Shown in pieces: positions 11,094 to 40,000 of a stretch of 40,000 nt of DNA. The notes beneath the pieces are model-generated. The model did not search any database and was not told the DNA's origin. It saw only the letters and a program-made list of their open reading frames with translations. Within the stretch, counting starts at the first letter, position 1. Each line of letters opens with the position of its first letter. Both the position numbers and the translations under genes were made by a program. Origin of the DNA: Megamonas funiformis (lineage in GTDB: Bacteria; Bacillota; Negativicutes; Selenomonadales; Selenomonadaceae); the NCBI RefSeq assembly GCF_010669225.1, contig NZ_CP048627.1, forward strand, positions 965,292-1,005,291, written 5' to 3'.

Positions 11094-11588
11094 ATGAATA
11101 AAAGCGTTGATTACATTGGAAAAACAGTTTATTATTTAAAAAATTATAATCAATTTAAAATATCAATTAAAAACTTGACCGAAGATATTGAAGTATTACA
11201 ACAGACTATGCAATTAGAGGCGGTTGCTCCTATAGCTAAATACGGTGATGATATTACTGCTGGAGGCAATAGTGAATTAACAGCAGTTGAAGCATATACA
11301 GCAAAAAAAGCACAGTATAAGGCTAAGATTATAGAATTACAAAATCGTTTAGAAATTATAAACAGAATAATAAAAAAGGTAGACCGCTCCATTGACGGTC
11401 TTGAAGATGAAGAAAAAAGAATTGTTATATCCTTTTATTTAGACAATAAAACATGGCGTGAAATAGCTCAACGGAATTATATATCAGAACAGTGGGCTAA
11501 AAAATGCAGAAATAAAGCTGTTAGAAGATTATCAAGAATGTTATTCGGTTTAACTGCTATACACGAACAGTTAGATTTATTCATATAA
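11094..11588 (+). CDS. ArpU-family / sigma-70 region-4-like late transcriptional regulator
   Basis: The C-terminal RIVISFYLDNKTWREIAQRNYISEQWAKKCRNKAVRRLSRML is a region-4-type HTH. It sits just upstream of the packaging module. ATG 11094 follows GGAGG. Confidence 0.6.
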   Translation: MNKSVDYIGKTVYYLKNYNQFKISIKNLTEDIEVLQQTMQLEAVAPIAKYGDDITAGGNSELTAVEAYTAKKAQYKAKIIELQNRLEIINRIIKKVDRSIDGLEDEEKRIVISFYLDNKTWREIAQRNYISEQWAKKCRNKAVRRLSRMLFGLTAIHEQLDLFI

Positions 11589-11797: not shown

Positions 11798-11831
11798 AAG
11801 CACAAGCTATAATGCCTGTGCTTTTTCTTTT
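11798..11831 (+). terminator. terminator-like hairpin just upstream of the ParB-like gene
   Basis: AAAGCACAAGC-TATAAT-GCCTGTGCTTT has one mismatch and is followed by TTCTTTT. Confidence 0.45.
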
Positions 11832-11847
11832 GGGGGGAAATAAACAA

Positions 11848-12603
11848 ATGAAGGAATTACAAATAATTTATAAAAATATTTCTGAATTAAATCCTTATGA
11901 GAACAATCCACGATTTAATGATGAGGCTGTTAAATATGTAGCAAATAGCATTAAAGAATTTGGTTTTAAAAATCCAATTATCCTGGATAATAACAATGTA
12001 ATTATATGTGGACACACTAGATATAAAGCAGCTAAAAAATTAAAAATGAATACTGTTCCATGTATTGTTTGTTCAGATTTAACACCAGAGCAAATAAAAG
12101 CTTTTCGTTTAGCAGATAATAAAACTGCTGAATTAGCTGATTGGGATATGGATTTATTAAATCAAGAATTTGCAGATATACTTGATTTTGATATGTCTTT
12201 ATTTGGATTTATGGATAATATTCCAGATGTTAACTTAGATTTAACAAATGATGATAAATACAGTACAAATATTCAAATTCCACAATATGAAATAACTGGT
12301 GAATGTCCTACACTTGAAGCTTTAGTTGATGAGGACAAGTGCAATTCCCTACTAGGGAAAATAGAGCAAGCAAATATTCCAGAAGAAATAAAAGCTTTTC
12401 TACGTAAAGCAGCTACGCGTCATTATGCTTTTAATTATAAAAATATTGCTGAATATTATGCGCATGCACCAGCCGAAATTCAAGAACTTATGGAAGAATC
12501 TGCACTTGTCATTATTGACTATAATAACGCTATTCGTAATGGTTATGTTCAGCTAAGTGAGGATTTAAAATCCCTAGTAGAGAGCGAGGAAGAAAATGCG
12601 TGA
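11848..12603 (+). CDS. ParB-like nuclease-domain (ParB/Srx fold) protein
   Basis: ISELNPYENNPRFNDEAVKYVANSIKEFGFKNPIIL...ICGHTRYKAAKKL is the classic ParBc N-terminal domain. ATG 11848 follows GGGGGG. Confidence 0.75.
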   Translation: MKELQIIYKNISELNPYENNPRFNDEAVKYVANSIKEFGFKNPIILDNNNVIICGHTRYKAAKKLKMNTVPCIVCSDLTPEQIKAFRLADNKTAELADWDMDLLNQEFADILDFDMSLFGFMDNIPDVNLDLTNDDKYSTNIQIPQYEITGECPTLEALVDEDKCNSLLGKIEQANIPEEIKAFLRKAATRHYAFNYKNIAEYYAHAPAEIQELMEESALVIIDYNNAIRNGYVQLSEDLKSLVESEEENA

Positions 12604-13462
12604 TGATTTTGCAGCATTTATTTTATCTAATGGCAGACCTAACAATATAAAAACACTTAGAGCTTTGAAGAAAGGTAATTACACAGGTAATTGGTATATC
12701 ATATGTGATGATTTAGATGTTACATTACCGGAGTATAAAAAGAAATTTAAAGACAGAGTTATCGTATTCGATAAGCGTGCTATAGCTGCTAAAATCGACA
12801 CGGGTATAAACGATAATGAAGATATGCGAGCTATTGTTTATGCTCGCAATGCTTGTTTTGATATAGCAAAACAATTAGGACTAACATATTTTTTAGAACT
12901 TGACGATGATTATACTTCTTTTGACGCTCGATATATTTCAAAAGGGAAAAAAGATAAACTTAAGGTCCGTAAAATTAAAAATCTTGATAATGTATTTGAG
13001 GCAATAATTAAATTTCTAGATACCTCAGGAGCATTATCAGTTGCCATTGCTCAAGCTGGTGACTATATTGGAGGCATTGATGGAAGATTTTATAAAAAAG
13101 GACTTGCTAGAAAGTGTATGAATACTTTCTTTTGTCGTACCGATAATCGCTTTTGGTGGAGTGGAAAACAAAATGAAGATGTATCAACATATACACATTT
13201 AGGAAATAAAGGAAAATTGTTTTTTACTTATACAAAAATATGTATTATCCAAGCAGCTACACAACAGACTACTGGAGGTATGACAGAGGTATATTTGGAA
13301 AAAGGCGGATATAACAAGCCGTTTTCAAGTGTTATTTTTAGTCCGCAAGCAGTTAAGGTGGCAATGATGAACACTAGCCACAAAAGAATACATCACAAAA
13401 TTAATTGGAATTTATGTACTCCGAAAATAATCAATGAAAGGTACAAAAAAAATAAAAAATAA
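12596..13462 (+). CDS. hypothetical protein, possibly GT-A-fold glycosyltransferase-like
   Basis: An N-terminal beta-strand plus GR motif (AAFILSNGRPNN) and a DxD-like FLELDDDY suggest a nucleotide-sugar transferase fold. This is pattern-level evidence only. Confidence 0.35.
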   Translation: MRDDFAAFILSNGRPNNIKTLRALKKGNYTGNWYIICDDLDVTLPEYKKKFKDRVIVFDKRAIAAKIDTGINDNEDMRAIVYARNACFDIAKQLGLTYFLELDDDYTSFDARYISKGKKDKLKVRKIKNLDNVFEAIIKFLDTSGALSVAIAQAGDYIGGIDGRFYKKGLARKCMNTFFCRTDNRFWWSGKQNEDVSTYTHLGNKGKLFFTYTKICIIQAATQQTTGGMTEVYLEKGGYNKPFSSVIFSPQAVKVAMMNTSHKRIHHKINWNLCTPKIINERYKKNKK

Positions 13463-13553
13463 ATATGCGGTATTTATAATTACTCATGGCAGAGCTAATA
13501 GACAATATCCACTAATTATTTCAAGTAAATATAAGAAGGTAAAAAATGATTGA
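13434..13553 (+). pseudogene. 39-codon ORF resembling the N-terminus of the preceding gene (possible truncated paralogue)
   Basis: MKGTKKIKNKYAVFIITHGRANRQYPL compares with MRDDFAAFILSNGRPNNIKTL. It is cut off where the radical-SAM gene begins. Confidence 0.25.
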
Positions 13554-14487
13554 TGATAATAAATTAATTTTTAATATGAATAATGTTTTTTATAAATTGC
13601 CTATTACAGCAGATATATTTTTAACTAATTTTTGTAATAATCATTGTAATTATTGTACATATGGTCGTTGGGATAAATTAAGTCGTAAGCCTAGATATAT
13701 GACATATGATAAATTTATTGAGTATGTACAAATATTATTACAGTTTAATGTTAAAAGTATTATTTTAACAGGTGGCGGTGAGCCAACGCTGAATCCAGAT
13801 TTTGAAAAAATAACAACTTATTTAGAAGAAAACCATATACCATATGGAGTAAATACGAATTTTAATATTTTGAAGAAGATTGCTCCTAAATATTTAAAAG
13901 TATCTTTAGACGCTAGTAATCCTAAGCAGTATAAAGTTATTAGGGGTGTAGATAGATATACACAAGTTATTAAAAATATACAAGCCTATCGAGTGTGGCA
14001 AAAAGAAAATAACATTCCTACAAAATTAGAAATCCAATGTGTAGTAAAAGATTATGCTGACCTTGATTTTTATTATGCACATAAAGATTTAGATGTAGAT
14101 TACATCATATTTAGACCTGTAGAAAGTACGCAAGCTCAATATTATAAGAATAAAAACAATGTAGCTCCAATATTAGATAAATTAGAACGAATACAATGTC
14201 GCGATAAGCGTGTAGTTATAAATTATAAATTTAATAGAATTGGATATACTCCTAGAGAATGTATAGCTAATTTCGCACAGATTGCACTAGATGAGCAAGG
14301 CAATGTTATGTATTGTTGTCACAAACCATATGAAATTATTGGACATATTACAGAAAAAGATATTCTAAAGAAAAAACTACAATATAAAACTAATATGAGT
14401 AAATGTGATGTTCCGTGCAGATTAACTGGTTGTAATTACTTATTAGATAAGGCAAAGGAGCATACTTCTGATAGTATGTTTATTTAG
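13546..14487 (+). CDS. radical SAM enzyme with Cys-rich C-terminal (SPASM/twitch-like) region
   Basis: CNNHCNYC is the CxxxCxxC cluster. GGGEPTLNP is the SAM-binding motif. C-terminal CC...C..PC....C cysteines. Confidence 0.8.
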   Translation: MIDDNKLIFNMNNVFYKLPITADIFLTNFCNNHCNYCTYGRWDKLSRKPRYMTYDKFIEYVQILLQFNVKSIILTGGGEPTLNPDFEKITTYLEENHIPYGVNTNFNILKKIAPKYLKVSLDASNPKQYKVIRGVDRYTQVIKNIQAYRVWQKENNIPTKLEIQCVVKDYADLDFYYAHKDLDVDYIIFRPVESTQAQYYKNKNNVAPILDKLERIQCRDKRVVINYKFNRIGYTPRECIANFAQIALDEQGNVMYCCHKPYEIIGHITEKDILKKKLQYKTNMSKCDVPCRLTGCNYLLDKAKEHTSDSMFI

Positions 14488-14526
14488 CCTTATTTTGACG
14501 TAATTTGACAATTTTACTATAGGATA

Positions 14527-14964
14527 ATGAAAATGGATATAGAAAATAAAAAAACGCGTATAGAACGCGTTAGAAAGGTTACAACGGAACAGGCTGAAAA
14601 AGCTTTGCAGAAAAGTGCAGGAATATTAACTCATGCAGTTACTTATTTAGAGCAAATGTATGGCATTAAGATTACAAGACAAGCATTATCTTATAGAGTT
14701 AAAAAGTCTAAAAGATTACAACGGGCACAGCAAGAAGCAAGAGAAACAGTTCTGGATCTAGCTGAAGGTGTTATTTTTTCGGAGATAAAAAAAGGAAATT
14801 GGAAAGTGTCTTTATCTGTTCTTAGAACATTAGGGAAAAACAGAGGGTATGCTGAAAAAGTCATTCATACAGATAAAGAAGAAACAGAACAACAATCAAA
14901 TGCAGCAGAATTATTAACAGAAGTATTAGAAAAAGTATGGGAGGGGAAAAATGACAAAACATAA
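14527..14964 (+). CDS. terS: terminase small subunit (putative)
   Basis: 145-aa protein with an HTH-like N-terminus that overlaps the terL start. The call rests mainly on position. Confidence 0.6.
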   Translation: MKMDIENKKTRIERVRKVTTEQAEKALQKSAGILTHAVTYLEQMYGIKITRQALSYRVKKSKRLQRAQQEARETVLDLAEGVIFSEIKKGNWKVSLSVLRTLGKNRGYAEKVIHTDKEETEQQSNAAELLTEVLEKVWEGKNDKT

Positions 14965-16363
14965 TAAAAATATTGATGAATTGGCAAGGTCCATGCGTCA
15001 GTATATTGCCGACCCTGTACCATTTGTACAAAATGTTTTAAAAGCACAGCCAGATAAATGGCAAATAGAATGTCTAAGGGCAATAGCTAATCATCCTCGT
15101 GTGGCTGTTCGTTCTGGTCATGGTGTTGGAAAAACTGCACTAGAAAGTTGGGCTATTTTATGGTTTATGTTTACACGTCCATTTCCTAAAGTGCCATGTA
15201 CAGCTCCAACGCAACAACAATTATTAGATATTCTTTGGCCAGAGATTAGTAAATGGCTAAAACGCTCTGAATTATTAGATGGACTTTTTGATTGGCAAAA
15301 AACAAAGGTTCAAAATAGAATACACCCGGAGAGATGGTTTGCTACAGCAAGAACCGCCAGCAAGCCAGAAAATATGGCAGGGTTCCATGAGGAACACCTG
15401 CTTTTTGTTATTGACGAAGCAAGCGGTGTAATGGACCCGATTTATGAAACGATTGAAGGTGCATTGACTACAAAAGACGCTAAATTACTTTTATGTGGTA
15501 ACCCCACACAAAATATTGGAACATTTAAGCGTGCTTTTCACGAGGATAGAGATTTATATTACACAATAAAAGTTAATTGTATGGATACTGACCGTGTAGC
15601 CAGCGCTTATTGTCAAAGACTTATTCGTCAATATGGTATGGACAGTGATGTTGTTAGAGTTCGTGTGCTTGGAGAATTTCCAAAATCAGAGCCAGACGGA
15701 TTAATTCCATTAGAACTTGTCGAAGCTGCAATGATGAGAGATTTAGATATAGATTACAATTCAATGCTTCATGTTGGAGCAGATATTGCTCGTTTTGGTG
15801 ATGACGAAACGATATTTGTTCCTAGAATTGCTGGAAAAACATTGGGATTATTTCACTATACAAAGCAAGATACAACTACTACAGCAGGTAAATTATTGAA
15901 TATTACAAAGAATTTTATGAGAGATTATCACAAGCCATATGCGACCATTCGTATTGATGATGATGGTGTTGGCGGTGGTGTTACAGATATGCTTAGAGAA
16001 ACTATAAGGGAACAACGACTAAACATTGATGTAATAGCTTGTCACAATGGTGGTAGTCCAATAGACAAAGAACATTATGCGAATTGGGCTACTGAACAAT
16101 GGTGTAACTTAAAACAACGATTACTTGATGAAGATATTGAAATTCCAAATGATGATGAATTATCGGCACAATTAAGTACACGTAAATATTCAATAGATAG
16201 ACGAGGACGTATTATTTTAGAAGATAAAAAGACTTATAAAAAACGTATTCGTAGAAGTCCAGACCGTGCAGATGCTTTAATTCTTGCATTTGCTAAGGTT
16301 AGAAATAATATTGACCCAAATATTGCTGCACTTTTAGGAGGGGCAAAATTATATGGTAATTAG
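14951..16363 (+). CDS. terL: terminase large subunit
   Basis: Walker A VRSGHGVGKT, Walker B LLFVIDEASGV, and a C-terminal nuclease-like region with DRADAL. Confidence 0.9.
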   Translation: MTKHNKNIDELARSMRQYIADPVPFVQNVLKAQPDKWQIECLRAIANHPRVAVRSGHGVGKTALESWAILWFMFTRPFPKVPCTAPTQQQLLDILWPEISKWLKRSELLDGLFDWQKTKVQNRIHPERWFATARTASKPENMAGFHEEHLLFVIDEASGVMDPIYETIEGALTTKDAKLLLCGNPTQNIGTFKRAFHEDRDLYYTIKVNCMDTDRVASAYCQRLIRQYGMDSDVVRVRVLGEFPKSEPDGLIPLELVEAAMMRDLDIDYNSMLHVGADIARFGDDETIFVPRIAGKTLGLFHYTKQDTTTTAGKLLNITKNFMRDYHKPYATIRIDDDGVGGGVTDMLRETIREQRLNIDVIACHNGGSPIDKEHYANWATEQWCNLKQRLLDEDIEIPNDDELSAQLSTRKYSIDRRGRIILEDKKTYKKRIRRSPDRADALILAFAKVRNNIDPNIAALLGGAKLYGN

Positions 16364-33550: not shown

Positions 33551-34553
33551 TAAAGGAAAAGAAATGCTTACTTTTACTGATTGGTATTATCAAGACAGTA
33601 AAATAATGCAAAGTATTTTAGATACACAAGGTATAGAAATAGATGCTATACGAGATAAAATAAAAAATATTTTAGAACAGTTTTATGTAGATACTGCAAC
33701 ATGGGGTTTAGATTTATGGGAAAAAGAACTTAATATACAAGACACTACAGGTAATTACTCTGAGCGTAGAAATCGTATTAAGTTATATTTAGCAAAACCT
33801 GTATCAGTTACACCGAGATTTTTAACTGATTTAGTAAATAGATATTCAGAAAAAAAATCTGCCAAAATAATAGAACATAATTCTGAATATTGTTTTGAAA
33901 TCGAGGTTGCAGCTGATGACAAAATAGACTGGGATAATATAAATAAAAGTATAAACTTATATAAACCAGCACATCTAGGATTTTATACATCATTAAAAAT
34001 ATTTTTATTAACAAAAATAATTAATACTGTAAAAATTATTAATTATTTAAATGCCAACCATAATTTCTGGAATTTGGGCACGGCGGAAAATACGTACTGG
34101 GACGGCGTATGGTGCTGGGACGGCAGTATCGACTGGAGTGGCATAAAACCGGATGCAAAATACAAAGAAAGGCAGTCCCATGTTATAGACATTTTAACTA
34201 AAGTTAATTCTACACAGACCTTTAAGACAGGACAAAGCGCAGATATAACGTATAAAATAACATCTAAGCACAGACTTTTAACAAGCCATAAAGCAGGCAG
34301 TATTTATTATGTAGATATAGACTTAAAACAAAACATTGAACACAGGGCATTAAATACAGGTAAAATTAATGCTATGCAGAGCCGAACCACAGGGAACGCA
34401 AAAAACCTATGGGACGGCTCTTTTTGTTGGGACGGCAGCCACGCATGGAGCGGCGATTACACCTTGCAAAATACACAGATGGAAAATTTATGTACCTGCT
34501 ACAGTATAGATAAAAATGGAAACATGAAGAAAGGAACGTTTGAAAAATTATGA
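33540..34553 (+). CDS. tail protein with DUF2313/XkdU-like N-domain and a 2x W-D-G repeat C-terminal extension
   Basis: The N-terminal region DWYYQDSKIMQSILDTQGIEIDAIRDKIKNILEQFYVDTATWGLDLWEKEL is typical of XkdU / P2 gpI-like proteins. YWDGVWCWDGSIDWSG and LWDGSFCWDGSHAWSG are repeats. Confidence 0.6.
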   Translation: MKSDKGKEMLTFTDWYYQDSKIMQSILDTQGIEIDAIRDKIKNILEQFYVDTATWGLDLWEKELNIQDTTGNYSERRNRIKLYLAKPVSVTPRFLTDLVNRYSEKKSAKIIEHNSEYCFEIEVAADDKIDWDNINKSINLYKPAHLGFYTSLKIFLLTKIINTVKIINYLNANHNFWNLGTAENTYWDGVWCWDGSIDWSGIKPDAKYKERQSHVIDILTKVNSTQTFKTGQSADITYKITSKHRLLTSHKAGSIYYVDIDLKQNIEHRALNTGKINAMQSRTTGNAKNLWDGSFCWDGSHAWSGDYTLQNTQMENLCTCYSIDKNGNMKKGTFEKL

Positions 34554-35032: not shown

Positions 35033-36685
35033 ATGAATAGTGAAGAATTAAAAAAAAATTTTAGCTTATTAATGCCAAGTGAGATAAATGGATTTAAAAG
35101 ACCAAAGGAACCGATAGCTAATGATAATGATTTCTTTTTGGAAGTTCCACAACTAATACAAAAAGACCCAGTACTTTATTCGACCATGAATTTAATATTA
35201 GGAGTACTTGTAAGTAACGATAAGCTACTTAAACAATGGCATGATACATTGCAAAATGTAGTAAATGCTCAAGATTGGCGAGTGGTTACAGATAGTTTAA
35301 AAGGTTATATGACCCCAGAACTAAAGAAAAAATTAGATGGAATTGCTGCTGGAGCTAATAATTATATACACCCAAGCACGCACCCTGCAAGTATGATTAC
35401 TCAGGACACGACCCACCGTTTTGTAACAGATACAGAAAAAACTACATGGAACGGCAAAGCAAGTACAGCAGTTGTATCAACAACGGCAAATGGACTAATG
35501 CCCAAAAGAGATGGTAGTGCAACATCTATTTTTACAGGAGACGGCGTCTGGAAAAGCCTTGCATGGAATTTAATCACAGGAAAACCATCAACATTTGCGC
35601 CGTCTGCTCACAATCATGATAGTAGTTATTTAAAACGTAATCAAACTACTCAAAATGATATGAATGTTTGTACAGTTGAAGGTATTTATCGTTTTAGTGG
35701 AAATTTAAGTAATGCTTGGACTGGTACAAGTTGGGGTACATTATTAGTATTTAATAATAATTATAACGGTGGTAGTGGTACAGGTGGAACTTATTTAGTT
35801 CAAATGGCATTACCAACAGATGGTAGAATATGGATTAGACAGAGAGTTAATACTGAAGCTTGGAGTGGTTGGGTTAAAGTAGCAATTACTTCAGATACTG
35901 TTGCTGGAGCAACTAAAGCTACTCAAGATAGTCAAGGTCAAGCAATAAATACAACATATATAAAAAGTATTACGGCTTCTAATGCTACATTAACTCTAAC
36001 AAAAGGAAATGGGACAACATCTACTGTTACTATTAATAATGTAGGAAATTCTACAAGAGCTACTCAAGATAAAAATGGTAAAGATATTACAGGATATCTT
36101 TATAAAACAGAAGATTTAACATTAAATTCAAATGCTGAAATTTTAACAGTAGGAAATATTTCAGAAATACTCAATTCCTTTTGTACAAAATTTAAACAAA
36201 TTCAAGGAACAGGTACTTATGCTGAAAACTCACCAACAAGCATAAAAAGTTTAAACGATAATAAGGCACCAAAAGCAAGCCCGGCATTTAGTGGCACTCC
36301 GACATCACCTACACCTGCAACAAGCGATAATAGTACAAAAATAGCTACAACTGAATTTGTTAGAAACCTCATCAATCAATTTAAAAATGATGGTACACTT
36401 GGTGGTATTGTTGGTGGTAGCTTAACACAAAATGGTTGGGTTAAATTTAGTAATGGTCTAATTCTACAATGGGGAAGTTCTGACTTTGGAAAAGAAAATA
36501 ATTTTCCTATTAGTTTTAATGTATTATTCGTATTTAACTTTAGCACTTACTCAACATCAGGAGATTATAGTAATAACGGAGATGGTGTAGATAGTATAAC
36601 TTTGATAAATAACACCAAATTTAAAGTAAATCATGGGAGTAATATTAGTAATGCAAAATTATTTTGGATAGCAATAGGAATTTAA
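35033..36685 (+). CDS. tail fibre protein. Its last 73 codons (36467-36685) form the currently expressed tip cassette C0.
   Basis: Contains fibre motifs HPSTHPASMITQDTTHRFVTDTEKTTWNGKA, repeated A(T/R)QD..G..I, and SPAFSGTPTSPTPATSDNSTKIATTEFV. The C-terminal NGWVKFSNGLILQWG is the hallmark entry into a gp53-like tip domain. Confidence 0.85.
   Translation: MNSEELKKNFSLLMPSEINGFKRPKEPIANDNDFFLEVPQLIQKDPVLYSTMNLILGVLVSNDKLLKQWHDTLQNVVNAQDWRVVTDSLKGYMTPELKKKLDGIAAGANNYIHPSTHPASMITQDTTHRFVTDTEKTTWNGKASTAVVSTTANGLMPKRDGSATSIFTGDGVWKSLAWNLITGKPSTFAPSAHNHDSSYLKRNQTTQNDMNVCTVEGIYRFSGNLSNAWTGTSWGTLLVFNNNYNGGSGTGGTYLVQMALPTDGRIWIRQRVNTEAWSGWVKVAITSDTVAGATKATQDSQGQAINTTYIKSITASNATLTLTKGNGTTSTVTINNVGNSTRATQDKNGKDITGYLYKTEDLTLNSNAEILTVGNISEILNSFCTKFKQIQGTGTYAENSPTSIKSLNDNKAPKASPAFSGTPTSPTPATSDNSTKIATTEFVRNLINQFKNDGTLGGIVGGSLTQNGWVKFSNGLILQWGSSDFGKENNFPISFNVLFVFNFSTYSTSGDYSNNGDGVDSITLINNTKFKVNHGSNISNAKLFWIAIGI
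36466..36476 (+). repeat. crossover-core candidate S0 (ACAATGGGGAA) inside the tail-fibre gene
   Basis: An exact copy of the core shared by all cassettes. It encodes (L)QWG in frame. Confidence 0.8.
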
Positions 36686-36892
36686 TTAAATTCCTATTGC
36701 CAAAATATAACCTAAAGCATCTCCACCTCCACTACCATGACCACGTGATATCCACGTTACATTTGTCAACGACTTACTTGCAACTATTAACGAATATTCG
36801 TAACCTCCTCTATTTCTTGTAAGAAAAACAGAAAAACACGTTTGTGTAAAACTAATTGGAAAAGTAAAATTTCCCTCTCCACTTCCCCATTG
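36686..36892 (-). other. silent tail-fibre tip cassette C1 (68 codons + stop, no start codon)
   Basis: Hand translation from the core gives QWGSGEGNFTFPISFTQTCFSVFLTRNRGGYEYSLIVASKSLTNVTWISRGHGSGGGDALGYILAIGI-stop. Confidence 0.8.
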
Positions 36893-36893
36893 T
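36883..36893 (-). repeat. core S1 (TTCCCCATTGT on the + strand)
   Basis: Abuts the stop codon of C2 (36894-36896). Confidence 0.8.
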
Positions 36894-37100
36894 TTAAACT
36901 CCTATTGCAATATATCTAGTTTGCCCTTGTTGTACACCTCTGCCATAAAAAACAGCTCCTGTTTTTGAAATTGTAGTAATTACTAAATCTTCATATTGAG
37001 ATGTAGCATGAGATGCTGTTATTGAAAATATATTATTTACAAATGATATTGGGAAATTTATTGTTATAGATTGTTGTACATTTGAAAGAATTCCCCATTG
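36894..37100 (-). other. silent tail-fibre tip cassette C2 (68 codons + stop)
   Basis: QWGILSNVQQSITINFPISFVNNIFSITASHATSQYEDLVITTISKTGAVFYGRGVQQGQTRYIAIGV-stop. Part of ORF-track 36894-37121. Confidence 0.8.
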
Positions 37101-37112
37101 TACAATGGGGAA
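37091..37112. repeat. cores S2/S3 head-to-head: perfect 22-bp palindrome TTCCCCATTGTACAATGGGGAA
   Basis: Reads P-I-V-Q-W-G on both strands. Confidence 0.9.
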
Positions 37113-37309
37113 AATTAACAAAAACTAGCTGGGATACATTTAGTGGTAACTTTCCGATTGCTTTCAATATTTGTTATGCTGCCATAGGTGTAGCAAATGA
37201 TATTGGATATACTGGCTGTAGTTTTAATAATAAAAGTATTAATGTTCATAGTAGATGGGAAAGTTCTAATGCGAGTAATATCGCCACGTATTTAGCAATA
37301 GGAAAATAA
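37103..37309 (+). other. silent tail-fibre tip cassette C3 (68 codons + stop)
   Basis: QWGKLTKTSWDTFSGNFPIAFNICYAAIGVANDIGYTGCSFNNKSINVHSRWESSNASNIATYLAIGK-stop. Confidence 0.8.
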
Positions 37310-37310
37310 A

Positions 37311-37532
37311 TTATTTACCTATAGAAAACCAAAACATACTACTATGTTCGCCAACAGAAATAGAGAATTGGGTTAAACTTTCTACATTTGCTGAATGAGC
37401 ATTTTTTGTTGCCCCTGTACCTACATTTCCTTTAGGATTAGCCGACATCATATAAACAGCAGAAGAATATGCTACAGGGAATGAATATACTTTACGAGAA
37501 TAACTCCCTTGTCCATTATTATTTCCCCATTG
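37311..37532 (-). other. silent tail-fibre tip cassette C4 (73 codons + stop)
   Basis: QWGNNNGQGSYSRKVYSFPVAYSSAVYMMSANPKGNVGTGATKNAHSANVESLTQFSISVGEHSSMFWFSIGK-stop (hand translation). Confidence 0.8.
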
Positions 37533-37533
37533 T
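37523..37533 (-). repeat. core S4
   Basis: TTCCCCATTGT, abutting the stop codon of C5 (37534-37536). Confidence 0.8.
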
Positions 37534-37755
37534 TTATATACCTATACCTAATATATTTCTTGTCCCGTATTGGGAACAATACTGAAAAGATGTGTTATTT
37601 ACATTTCGTAAACCTCTAACATCTGCATCTGTACCTCGCCCTGAATTAAATATGTTAGCATCTACAGCCACGAAAATAGTATTAAAAGCAACGGGCCATG
37701 TTTTTGAATAATACACTTCACCACCACTATCACGATTTGAACCAACTACCCATTG
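37534..37755 (-). other. silent tail-fibre tip cassette C5 (73 codons + stop) with variant entry QWV
   Basis: QWVVGSNRDSGGEVYYSKTWPVAFNTIFVAVDANIFNSGRGTDADVRGLRNVNNTSFQYCSQYGTRNILGIGI-stop. Confidence 0.75.
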
Positions 37756-37767
37756 TACAATGGGGAA
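37746..37767. repeat. cores S5/S6 head-to-head, with the S5 arm degenerate (CTACCCATTGT|ACAATGGGGAA)
   Basis: The left arm carries 2 mismatches to the consensus, giving QWV for C5. Confidence 0.8.
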
Positions 37768-37955
37768 CTTGTATTAATGGCGATAATATATATCCTATTA
37801 GTTTTTCTAAATTTTGTACTTTAAGTATAGGAGGAGAACATCCTTATAGTGGAGGAGGTTCTTTCTTGCCTAAAAAACCAACAGCTTTAAATGGTTTTTA
37901 TTATACATTAACTGTAGATACTTATTATGGTGGCTATATAGCTATTGGAGTTTAA
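37758..37955 (+). other. silent tail-fibre tip cassette C6 (65 codons + stop)
   Basis: QWGTCINGDNIYPISFSKFCTLSIGGEHPYSGGGSFLPKKPTALNGFYYTLTVDTYYGGYIAIGV-stop. Confidence 0.8.
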
Positions 37956-37998
37956 TAATAGAAATGTATTTATAATGCAATTTATTTTTTATTGGATT

Positions 37999-38217
37999 TT
38001 AGTTTCCTATTGCTATCCAAAATAATTTTGCATTACTAATATTGCTTCCATGATTTACTTTAAATTTGGTTTCATTTATCAAAATTATACTATCTACGCC
38101 GTCTCCGCTATTACTATAATCTCCTGATGTTGAGTAAGTACTAAAATCAAATGCGAATAATACATTGAAATTAATAGGAAAAGCATTTTCTTTTCCAAAA
38201 TCAGAAGTTCCCCATTG
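37999..38217 (-). other. silent tail-fibre tip cassette C7 (72 codons + stop), close paralogue of expressed C0
   Basis: QWGTSDFGKENAFPINFNVLFAFDFSTYSTSGDYSNSGDGVDSIILINETKFKVNHGSNISNAKLFWIAIGN-stop. It differs from C0 at 9 of 72 residues. Confidence 0.85.
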
Positions 38218-38229
38218 TACAATGGGGAA
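38208..38229. repeat. cores S7/S8 head-to-head: second perfect 22-bp palindrome
   Basis: TTCCCCATTGTACAATGGGGAA, identical to 37091-37112. Confidence 0.9.
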
Positions 38230-38411
38230 AAGGGCATGATACTCAAACTATAATTTTTCCTATAGCGTTTACCCAGCAAGCTTTTTGTTGTATAGTAACT
38301 CCTATTGGAGGTGGACAAGGTTCAGATAGAGTATATAGTTTAAGTGTAAAAAGTTTTCAAATTCTTTGTGGTACTAATAATGATGGTTTATGGTTAGCGT
38401 TAGGTATTTAA
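38220..38411 (+). other. silent tail-fibre tip cassette C8 (63 codons + stop)
   Basis: QWGKGHDTQTIIFPIAFTQQAFCCIVTPIGGGQGSDRVYSLSVKSFQILCGTNNDGLWLALGI-stop. Confidence 0.8.
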
Positions 38412-38425
38412 TATAAAATATTATT

Positions 38426-38650
38426 TTATTTACCTATTGCAATATAATTTACTGGAACAGCGCCATCATTGGAATATATTCTAACTTGCGTTTTATTCCA
38501 ATCGCAAGCACCAGCAGAGTTACCATCTTTTGCTCCCCAACCATTATCTTGACGGTTTGTAACTACTTGATAACATATATCAGGAAAAGAAATAGGGAAG
38601 TTATACCACGGAGGGTTAGGACCATCTGCTCCATTGGCACTTCCCCATTG
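38426..38650 (-). other. silent tail-fibre tip cassette C9 (74 codons + stop)
   Basis: QWGSANGADGPNPPWYNFPISFPDICYQVVTNRQDNGWGAKDGNSAGACDWNKTQVRIYSNDGAVPVNYIAIGK-stop. Confidence 0.8.
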
Positions 38651-38671
38651 TTTACTTTGAACAATGGGGAA
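38641..38671. repeat. cores S9 and S10 head-to-head, separated by a 9-bp spacer TTACTTTGA
   Basis: TTCCCCATTGT-TTACTTTGA-ACAATGGGGAA. Confidence 0.85.
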
Positions 38672-38862
38672 GTATTAATATAATCTATGGCACAGGATTT
38701 TATACCTTAAATTTTCCTATATCATTTAATTCTCTTTACGCAATAGTAGATGGTGGAGTTTTTGATATTGAAATACAATCAAGAAATACTTCTAATTTTA
38801 AGATAGAACAACGTAGTGGTCAAAATAGTGATATTTATTGTTATATTGCAATAGGTAATTAA
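38662..38862 (+). other. silent tail-fibre tip cassette C10 (66 codons + stop)
   Basis: QWGSINIIYGTGFYTLNFPISFNSLYAIVDGGVFDIEIQSRNTSNFKIEQRSGQNSDIYCYIAIGN-stop. Confidence 0.8.
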
Positions 38863-39095
38863 ATTCCTATTGCAATCCAATATATTTTACAATTAGCAAC
38901 ATCTGAACCATGATGAAAAATAAAACTATTTGTTGTAATTTTTATTATATTGTCTGCTCCGCCTCCAGCATTATTATAGGAACCATTTGTAGAATATAAA
39001 TTAGATATTACACAATATATATCACTAAAAGATATAGGAAGGTTAATAGAAATGTTACTATCTCCAGAAGAACTACTAGATGACAATCCCCATTG
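38859..39095 (-). other. silent tail-fibre tip cassette C11 (78 codons + stop)
   Basis: QWGLSSSSSSGDSNISINLPISFSDIYCVISNLYSTNGSYNNAGGGADNIIKITTNSFIFHHGSDVANCKIYWIAIGI-stop. Confidence 0.8.
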
Positions 39096-39096
39096 T
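39087..39096 (-). repeat. core S11 (TCCCCATTGT), the right-hand boundary of the cassette array
   Basis: Followed directly by TAAAGGAG, which is the RBS of the next gene. Confidence 0.8.
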
Positions 39097-39112
39097 TAAA
39101 GGAGTTGAAAAA

Positions 39113-39388
39113 ATGAATTTATTTATAAATACATCTGATGTAAAAAATTTTATAAAACATGGTTTTGAATATAAAAAATCTAATGATAATAAATATAACC
39201 GTTTAGAATATATGATATACTGTGATGGCTTTGATTATATGATTTTAATAGCAGAATGGACAAGAGGTGAAAAAACAGCATTACTAAAAATAGAAAAAGA
39301 GATTTGCGAAGGTATAAGTTATATGACATTAGAATTACCAAACGTGATTTACGATTTGATAAATAAAGGTTTATTAAAGAAAGGCTGA
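39113..39388 (+). CDS. hypothetical protein (91 aa)
   Basis: ATG 39113 follows AAAGGAG. The ORF-track start 39080 lies inside core S11 and cassette C11. Confidence 0.5.
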   Translation: MNLFINTSDVKNFIKHGFEYKKSNDNKYNRLEYMIYCDGFDYMILIAEWTRGEKTALLKIEKEICEGISYMTLELPNVIYDLINKGLLKKG

Positions 39389-39392
39389 TTTT

Positions 39393-39803
39393 ATGTATTT
39401 AATGAAATTTGATGAAGAAGGTAAAAAAATATCTGCTGTTCCTTTGATTTTAGTTAATGATTGGGGAGGTGTAGAAAAATTGAAAAATGAAGGATATATT
39501 GAAGTATCTGATGAAGATTGGAATTACTATACTGGTAATTGTGGAGATGGTGATAATGATACAGGATATATAAGGGATAGTATTACTGGAAAACCTATTT
39601 CTGCACCTGCTAGAGTTATTACATTAGAGGAGCAAGCAAATGCTCTTAAAGCAGAATATGAAGCTAATGTTAAAGCAATTGATGAGGCAATACAGATTGC
39701 CAAAAATAACAATGATGATGAATATGTTAGTGAATTGCAACAGGAAAGACAAAATATATTAGATGAATATGCAAAAAAATTGGAGGAATTGACAAATGCT
39801 TAA
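39393..39803 (+). CDS. hypothetical protein with coiled-coil C-terminus (post-fibre position, XkdW-like placement)
   Basis: ORF in the operon. The functional assignment rests on position only. Confidence 0.45.
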   Translation: MYLMKFDEEGKKISAVPLILVNDWGGVEKLKNEGYIEVSDEDWNYYTGNCGDGDNDTGYIRDSITGKPISAPARVITLEEQANALKAEYEANVKAIDEAIQIAKNNNDDEYVSELQQERQNILDEYAKKLEELTNA

Positions 39804-39960
39804 ATTTTGTACATTTTGTGGAAGAAAACTTGATACAGAAGGCTTTTGCACTAATAAAAAGTGTCCTGATTACAAACGAAAAGAACTTATAGAAACAGAA
39901 AAGAAAGTGTTAGCAGAAAAAGCAAAAAGCACCCAAGAAGCTAATAATAATAAGGCTTAG
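39796..39960 (+). CDS. small zinc-ribbon protein (54 aa)
   Basis: MLKFCTFCGRKLDTEGFCTNKKCPDYKRK... is a CxxC...CxxxxC pattern. RBS GGAGGA lies 7 nt upstream. Below the ORF-track cutoff. Confidence 0.4.
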   Translation: MLKFCTFCGRKLDTEGFCTNKKCPDYKRKELIETEKKVLAEKAKSTQEANNNKA

Positions 39961-39974
39961 AGGGTGCTTTTATT

Positions 39975-40000
39975 ATGTCAAAAATTATATTACCGTATTT
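39975..40000 (+). CDS. 5' end of an ORF running off the right edge
   Basis: ATG follows GAGGGTG and encodes MSKIILPY... Confidence 0.3.

Follow-up and report, generated by a model that had tools for sequence, protein, structure and literature searches.

The 2.6-kb cassette region between positions 36466 and 39096 of the analysed stretch (the window, 40,000 nt in total) most likely represents the tail-fibre shufflon of a Megamonas funiformis prophage, in which twelve copies of a short core, ACAATGGGGA, act as crossover sites for inversions carried out by a tyrosine recombinase encoded downstream. According to this model, the recombinase would pair two inversely oriented cores and exchange strands within their first 7 bp, ACAATGG; the bases GGA at positions 8-10 would form the specific arm of the site, while the left arm would be essentially non-specific and retain only a T at position -3. 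An inversion involving the expression site S0 would bring a different tip in frame after the ...GLIL-QWG of the tail fibre, and an inversion between internal sites would reorder and reorient the cassettes. One tip would thus be expressed and 11 would be silent. The comparisons below are based on Megamonas prophages from metagenomes and from IMG/VR (L-numbered loci), which contain the same cassettes in other arrangements.

The tail fibre gene and its cassettes

The window consists of prophage DNA with a GC content of about 31%. Downstream of Mu Gp48-like and baseplate J genes lies the tail fibre gene, whose product matches the Pfam tail-fibre tip domain Gp53-like_C at residues 471-549 (Table 1). 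All twelve cassettes are open from the QWG-coding core to the stop codon, encode 63-78 aa and end with (I/L/S)(A/I/G)(I/L)G-x-stop; several of them match Gp53-like_C by themselves. Given the 12 open frames and the resemblance to Gp53-like_C, the set of cassettes provides one expressed gene with alternative 3' ends that are all in frame. They have diverged considerably (median pairwise identity 29%); between C0 and C7, identity reaches 88% in protein and 91% in DNA. Neighbouring cassettes occur in all three relative orientations: tail to tail, head to head and, for C2 then C1 and C5 then C4, head to tail.

Table 1. Features of the tail-fibre locus (window numbering; the last entry lies past the window end).
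Feature	Position	Strand	Remarks
Tail fibre gene, 550 aa	35033-36685	+	constant part 35033-36465 fused at S0 to C0
S0, expression-site core ACAATGGGGA	36466-36475	+	codons ..A CAA TGG GGA; inside the tail fibre gene
C0, 72 aa	36467-36685	+	in expressed position; elsewhere in order in L080 and L088
C1, 68 aa	36686-36893	-	core S1 36884-36893
C2, 68 aa	36894-37101	-	core S2 37092-37101
Perfect 22-bp palindrome	37091-37112	.	S2 and S3 back to back
C3, 68 aa	37102-37309	+	core S3 37102-37111
C4, 73 aa	37311-37533	-	core S4 37524-37533
C5, 73 aa	37534-37756	-	starts QWV, not QWG; variant core S5 ACAATGGGTA 37747-37756
C6, 65 aa	37757-37955	+	core S6 37757-37766
C7, 72 aa	37999-38218	-	core S7 38209-38218
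Perfect 22-bp palindrome	38208-38229	.	S7 and S8 back to back
C8, 63 aa	38219-38411	+	core S8 38219-38228
C9, 74 aa	38426-38651	-	core S9 38642-38651
C10, 66 aa	38661-38862	+	core S10 38661-38670, 9 bp from S9
C11, 78 aa	38859-39096	-	fixed right-end core S11 39087-39096
Three small conserved ORFs (91 aa, 136 aa, 54-aa zinc-ribbon-like)	39113-39960	+	between shufflon and recombinase
Tyrosine recombinase, ~349 aa	ends ~40080 (continued numbering)	-	~80 bp past window end; L079 10688 onward

Some further observations concern the surroundings of the cassettes. The middle of the tail fibre gene (35636-36265) is not conserved in several relatives (L008-L016), whose N-terminal 1.5 kb and final 200 bp ahead of S0 share 85-90% identity with the window; the constant part is therefore itself mosaic. 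A promoter scan of the shufflon region returned 34 matches, compared with 33 in shuffled sequence. At the tail-to-tail join of C0 and C1 (36671-36700), the convergent ...AIGI-stop codons give rise to a 30-bp perfect palindrome, GCAATAGGAATTTAATTAAATTCCTATTGC, and a similar but imperfect one is located at 38845-38876. None of the isomers shows an exchange at the tail-to-tail palindrome 36671-36700. Elsewhere in the prophage, a DNA-modification module may be made up of three early genes at 11812-14487: a ParB_N nuclease-like gene, a gene with a match to PF20691 (TAGT) and a 313-aa ORF with the CxxxCxxC typical of radical SAM enzymes. The relatives L080 and L082 possess, at 12300-15000, an N6/N4 methyltransferase gene and a glutathionylspermidine-synthase-like gene (PF03738) between holin and endolysin; the prophage of the window is without this pair and has an Amidase_3 lysin instead.

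The core and its flanks

With at most one mismatch allowed, ACAATGGGGA is matched 13 times in the window, versus 2.3 +/- 1.5 expected from shuffled sequence (shuffle maximum 5). Twelve of the 13 matches cluster within 36466-39096 and occur in both orientations, with five plus-strand and seven minus-strand copies. The rightmost site, S11, is 2 nt away from the ribosome-binding site of the next gene, and S5 is the only one of the twelve with a variant core.

The first-pass annotation of this DNA had proposed that the twelve sites share nothing but the core and a following A. Our realignment agrees as far as the 10 bp of the core are concerned, but base 11 is A in just 10 of 12 sites (A, T or G in relatives), and a T at position -3 is present in all twelve; given this T, the conserved footprint is slightly wider than had been stated. 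The letters quoted for the unrelated 5' flanks of S0, S1, S4, S9, S10 and S11 proved exact, and conservation on the 3' side is indeed lost early, namely after base 11. Information in the flanks does not exceed 0.8 bit per position: the site is asymmetric, and its other arm is variable. That the core lies on the QWG codons is true of this lineage but not of others, in which homologous cores occupy other reading frames.

The arrangement of facing sites was also described correctly. The two perfect palindromes 37091-37112 and 38208-38229 (TTCCCCATTGTACAATGGGGAA) show no mismatch to their own reverse complement and read PIVQWG on both strands; the imperfect palindrome 37746-37767 differs from its reverse complement at 4 positions, and 38641-38671 contains two cores 9 bp apart. 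When the window and its relatives are considered together, the spacing of back-to-back core pairs ranges from 0 to 12 bp, and from 9 to 12 bp in the pairs that do not abut. Because the spacing varies to this extent, the 22-bp palindromes are merely two head-to-head sites without a spacer, and not a functional unit.

A different interpretation would take the symmetric 22-bp palindrome as the true substrate, consisting either of inverted GGGGAA arms around a spacer or of a Hin/Gin-type site with a central TA, with the lone cores as degenerate half-sites. The existence of two perfect palindromes and an imperfect one is in agreement with it, and so is the T at -3/-4, which partly mirrors A10/A11. 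However, apart from the variable spacing, the left flanks of 6 of the 12 sites are unrelated, including those of S0 and S11, the two fixed ends, at which relatives show many different cassettes, and in 71 comparisons of the same cassette the bases -1 to -4 never move with the cassette beyond chance. Furthermore, neither tblastn with Hin nor the Pfam lists revealed a serine recombinase. The probability of a palindromic substrate is accordingly small; its serine-invertase version was rejected on account of the unrelated left halves and the lack of a serine recombinase match. As an accessory DNA site, we considered the FPISF-coding stretch and rejected it: its proline codon varies (CCT, CCA, CCC, CCG), as does its distance to the core.

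The tyrosine recombinase next to the cassettes

The 40,000 nt of the window themselves contain no recombinase gene. The window matches scaffold JH601090.1 of GCA_000245775.1 with 100% identity over the aligned region (L079 position = window position minus 29392), and a tyrosine recombinase gene is found there about 1 kb downstream of the last core (Table 1). TrmD and SHMT, encoded in the flanks, match proteins of M. funiformis YIT 11815 exactly. Every related locus likewise encodes a 346-349 aa PF00589 protein on the opposite strand; its gene is preceded by three small ORFs and followed by those for holin and endolysin. On scaffold JH601090.1 the recombinase gene is split by an N gap with duplicated flanks (L079 ~11452-11553, corresponding to ~40844-40945, past the window), and the recombinase sequence used for this genome is a reconstruction across that gap; the gene is intact (346-348 aa) in L080, L082 and L084-87. 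A second N gap with duplicated flanks is present in the Gp48-like gene (L079 4588-4689), where the window is continuous (33980-34081). Both gaps are probably scaffolding or assembly artefacts.

The recombinase matches PF00589 at 8e-22, and the putative catalytic set R206, K231, H294, R297, H320 and Y330 is invariant in an alignment of 30 homologues. An AlphaFold model, made on protein P0001 (95% identical to the reconstructed recombinase; mean pLDDT 84), consists of an N-terminal three-strand-plus-helix domain (residues 14-56), a helical core-binding domain and a catalytic domain; its chain stops 19 residues past Tyr330 and an extra C-terminal domain is absent. The top Foldseek matches are Tn1549 Int and full-length lambda Int, and the alignments with lambda Int extend over about 360 columns, near the whole length. 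Annotation pipelines give this invertase the name 'integrase'. A second, canonical integrase is encoded at the other end of the prophage, beside rimM/trmD and repressor genes, and is 25% identical to the shufflon recombinase. A tblastn search of the window and its flanks for a serine invertase, with Hin as the query, gave only matches with E >= 2.2, and the Resolvase family is absent from the Pfam lists for the prophage loci.

Of the three small ORFs, those of 91 aa and 136 aa have no Pfam match. The 54-aa ORF (39796-39972 region) carries CxxC...CxxC and directly precedes a strong hairpin, AAAAGCACCC...GGGTGCTTTT; this hairpin terminator (~39925-39972) separates the small ORFs from the convergent recombinase gene. 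The zinc-ribbon-like ORF is kept in the Megamonas lineage, and Phascolarctobacterium relatives have a DUF4376 protein in its place. A search for arm-type repeats around the recombinase gene, the small ORFs and the right end yielded nothing convincing, only the terminator hairpin.

Recombinase lineages and their cores

Homologues with 41-55% identity are found in Phascolarctobacterium, Megasphaera, Anaerovibrio, Selenomonas and other Negativicutes elements, where they also adjoin tail-fibre cassettes. Each locus of this clade, some with up to 14 sites, has its own invariant core, the first five nucleotides of which are uniform within the locus and differ between lineages: ACAAT, ACAGT, GCAGT, ACAGC, CTGTC or CCGTT, each followed by GGGGA. 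The core varies together with the recombinase. ACAATGGGGA accompanies enzymes that are 84-100%, and some that are 54-55%, identical to that of the window; for ACAGTGGGGA the identities are 88% and 42-55%, for GCAGTGGGGA 52-55%, for ACAGCGGGGA 53%, for CTGTCGGGGA 42-47% and for CCGTTGGGGA 41%. We surveyed 37 loci that have a recombinase of 42% identity or more together with 2.5 kb or more of flank. Inverted copies of one NNNNNGGGGA are present in 27 of them; the available flank of the other 10 contains no inverted GGGGA pair, and in three of these 10 there are several same-strand core copies on a contig that ends before the expression site. At 39-42% identity GGGGA is replaced by GAGGA or GATGA, and homologues at 30-35% identity (Clostridia) have no such repeats. 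Some of the latter have other repeats near the gene, which we take as a sign of ordinary integrases.

GGGGA occurs in all three codon phases. As xGG GGA it reads QWG in the Gp53-like cassettes, as GCG GGG AAx it reads TAGN in L101, and as GGG GAA it reads VGE in L120, which possesses a different tip family; judging from their HNN...RTA C-termini, we take the L120 tips to be tail-collar-like. Being kept across codon phases, GGGGA is therefore conserved as DNA and not as protein, and the overlap with QWG is specific to this lineage. Variation of the five 5' bases by lineage, together with 3' bases that track the protein, is the pattern that would be expected of an overlap region plus a binding arm.

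Inversion could also be brought about in trans, by the integrase at the left end of the prophage or by a host recombinase, if the adjacent recombinase had some other role. The prophage does have a second tyrosine recombinase, and the adjacent one retains a predicted integrase-like N-terminal domain; yet the adjacency of recombinase and cassettes is kept in elements of Megamonas, Phascolarctobacterium, Megasphaera, Anaerovibrio and Selenomonas, the core changes with the recombinase lineage, and homologues at ~30-35% identity are without such repeats, which makes action in trans very improbable. We infer that the adjacent recombinase is the enzyme that catalyses the exchange, presumably also in this strain; it would favour inversion over deletion.

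Isolated phage genomes gave no match to 35033-40000 by megablast, and by tblastn with the recombinase only integrases of at most 35% identity; no cultured phage therefore appears to carry this system. Our literature search found no paper that pairs 'shufflon' with these Negativicutes genera.

Junctions in natural isomers

The core had been put forward as the crossover site, and breakpoints in the FPISF- or IAIG-coding stretches had been named as evidence to the contrary. In the natural isomers, the junctions map to the 10-bp core, and none of them lies in either stretch. In 186 informative comparisons, the switch between left context and cassette occurs at the edges of the 10-bp core, with the exception of 6 variant-core pairs that stop earlier. 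Of 115 pairs of sites with the same left context and different cassettes, 69 stay identical up to position 10 and 28 up to position 11; another 12 extend by chance to positions 12-17, and the 6 that stop at position 2 or 8 all involve variant cores. Conversely, of 71 pairs with the same cassette and different left contexts, 43 are identical from position 1 onward and 23 from the base before it, and the remaining five extend a few bases further left.

Of 51 cassettes, 23 were found with at least two left contexts. In relatives, the expression-site context, ...GGTCTAATTCT directly followed by ACAATGGGGA, precedes at least 8 different cassettes, and the right-end context, ...CAACTCCTTTA followed by the same core, at least 7; the same cassette turns up in three settings, each in a different locus: at the expression site, at the right end and within a palindrome. 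All BLAST blocks common to the window and its relatives end no more than 6 nt from a core, and tail-to-tail cassette pairs always remain linked. In L082 the block 37749-38228 is inverted and C10 is found at the right end. A single inversion between the outermost sites distinguishes L096 from L097, whose flanks have 0 mismatches over 9,756 bp; L095, with one flank mismatch relative to these two, represents a third isomer. In addition, the contigs L001, L102, L117 and L118 end exactly at the final A of the core, L084 starts there, and L105 is one base short; this is how an assembly graph behaves when a sample holds several isomers.

Conservation of QWG at the protein level combined with ancient mosaicism might account for the repeats in a locus that is static today, and QWG does begin the Gp53-like_C domain. 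We give this explanation very little credence: the bases A1, A4 and A10, which are synonymous or belong to neighbouring codons, are invariant, the homologous core lies in other frames elsewhere (TAGN, VGE), near-identical strains differ by inversions only, and breaks in assemblies coincide with the core. Homologous recombination or gene conversion between the coding stretches (FPISF, IAIG, QWG) instead of site-specific exchange is extremely improbable despite the common protein motifs of the cassettes and the 91% DNA identity of C0 and C7, as all block boundaries are at cores (within 6 nt by BLAST, exactly at the junction level) and none in FPISF or IAIG, tail-to-tail cassette pairs are always linked, and RecA needs identity far beyond 10 bp.

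Two assemblies deserve separate mention. The right-end junction of L097 (9757-9785), ACAATGGGGA-GCT-TAACAG..., joins the first 3 nt of one cassette to the body of another, and the reciprocal junction is normal. Mixed isomers in a noisy long-read assembly have probably led to an erroneous consensus here; if the chimera is real, it would place an exchange 3 nt outside the core. L081 (ENA contig_97_polypolish, 1-20411) contains two mirror-image prophage right ends with facing recombinase genes and different shufflon arrangements, and is probably a long-read foldback or assembly artefact that caught two isomers of one sample.

A probable 7-bp exchange region

Base -1 is always that of the left context, and base 11 always that of the cassette. 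Variant cores provide further landmarks: the T9 variant stays with C5 under two left contexts (window and L080), and an A8 variant stays with its cassette under four. Since the T9 core is found with C5 under a different left context in L080, this site has evidently still undergone exchange. Among 297 distinct sites from 47 loci, 16 of the 19 single-base variants are at positions 8-9, and none at positions 1, 2, 5, 6, 7 or 10. Because base -1 stays on the left and the variants at positions 8 and 9 stay with the cassette, the exchange is probably confined to positions 1-7, with ACAATGG as a 7-bp overlap. Seven base pairs are the usual size of the overlap region for tyrosine recombinases. The core of the sfx site likewise has 7 bp (PMC11852207).

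In non-redundant left flanks excluding back-to-back partners, T is the commonest base at position -3 (60-77%) in four core lineages. This position mirrors A10 across the 7-bp overlap, and the T at -3 and -4 partly mirror A10 and A11; the T at -3 would thus fit a second, nearly non-specific left arm. GGA (8-10), part of the clade-wide GGGGA, would then be the sequence-specific arm. For a tyrosine recombinase, 3-5 bp is a very short arm, and the conserved core is unlikely to be the whole functional site; because the arm is so short, other determinants would be needed, such as the N-terminal domain, host factors or DNA shape.

Comparison with known inversion systems

In Min (p15B), Gin (Mu) and Cin (P1), as in the Megamonas locus, inversion switches the C-terminus of a tail fibre, and the crossover falls where the constant part meets the variable one. 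Those enzymes are serine invertases that act on symmetric 26-bp sites with a Fis enhancer. The sites described here, in contrast, are asymmetric, and no serine recombinase was found. The earlier distinction from the symmetric 12-2-12 sites of Hin, Gin and Cin is in agreement with the unrelated left halves of 6 of the 12 sites and the absence of a serine invertase match. The logic of an sfx-like site recognised by a tyrosine recombinase, which had been suggested instead, is corroborated by the conserved core, the variable left arm and the tyrosine recombinase just past the window end.

The R64 sfx site is asymmetric: to the right of its 7-bp core (spacer) lies a conserved arm, to the left a variable one (PMC11852207). 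Both systems feature multiple inversion with a tyrosine recombinase, an asymmetric site and cassettes that are alternative C-termini of one gene. They differ in that sfx conserves 19 bp (7-bp core plus 12-bp right arm), compared with 10-11 bp here, and that the target is the pilV adhesin on a plasmid rather than a phage tail fibre. Rci, according to its description, also has an extra C-terminal domain, whereas the chain here ends 19 residues past Tyr330.

The kind of system has already been described in other gut phages. Rin, the closest precedent, is a phage tyrosine recombinase beside tandem cassettes for receptor-binding-protein C-termini in Bifidobacterium and Eggerthella prophages (PMC6109161, PMC8778435). 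Its rix site, reported in 2018, is asymmetric, 11 bp long (TTCCCTAACCC) and located before each cassette and once inside the expressed gene (PMC6109161). Rin is described as XerD-like, without an N-terminal arm-binding domain, and its prophages have a separate integrase at the other end (PMC6109161, PMC8778435). The Megamonas locus shares the phage-borne location, the receptor-binding C-terminus cassettes, the asymmetric sites of ~11 bp and the separate integrase, and the reverse complement of rix, GGGTTAGGGAA, also ends in GGGAA. In contrast to Rin as described, the recombinase of the Megamonas locus has a predicted lambda-Int-like N-terminal domain (residues 14-56). Core sequence and virion type differ as well (a myovirus-type tail module here), the cassette fold is Gp53-like_C rather than TP901-1 RBP-like or lectin, and the hosts are Negativicutes rather than Actinobacteria, with up to 12-14 cassettes. 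A preprint from 2026 reports a BV01-like Phocaeicola phage with a directional 10-bp motif between its tail-fibre cassettes, a flanking recombinase and all configurations in the reads (PMC13596623). That phage, from a Bacteroidota host, has three cassettes and the motif TGGGAGAACT with extensions of 14-18 bp, whereas the Megamonas locus has 12 cassettes and almost no conserved flank. The supposition that the core is shorter than any known site is contradicted by both systems, given the 11 bp of rix (PMC6109161) and the 10-bp motif of the BV01-like phage (PMC13596623).

Implications

What our comparison adds to these precedents is the putative 7-bp exchange window, the proposed overlap/arm rule and sequence evidence for what appears to be a sizeable uncharacterised invertase clade. 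We tentatively suggest that this clade might be distinct and unrelated to Rci and Rin, having emerged from lambda-Int-like integrases of which it kept the N-terminal domain, and that it might use a compact site made up of a re-codable 7-bp overlap and a GGGGA arm of ~3-5 bp. As part of the same tentative reading, the clade may be widely distributed among prophages of Negativicutes, its loci having up to 14 cassettes and its tips belonging to at least three unrelated families.

Natural isomers alone resolve the exchange region to 7 bp, under the reading given above. If positions 1-5 need only match between partner sites, and GGGGA is kept throughout the clade, a testable rule for site design would follow; the overlap could then be reprogrammed by changing both partner sites, which would provide orthogonal tools for multiplex inversion. 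For metagenomics, the consequence is that shufflon loci of this kind break assemblies at the core. The system would be modular, with one recombinase clade serving three unrelated tip families in Negativicutes prophages. For the temperate gut phage itself, 2.6 kb of DNA would supply a choice of 12 receptor-binding tips, and its host range within Megamonas populations is probably broadened or switched in this way.
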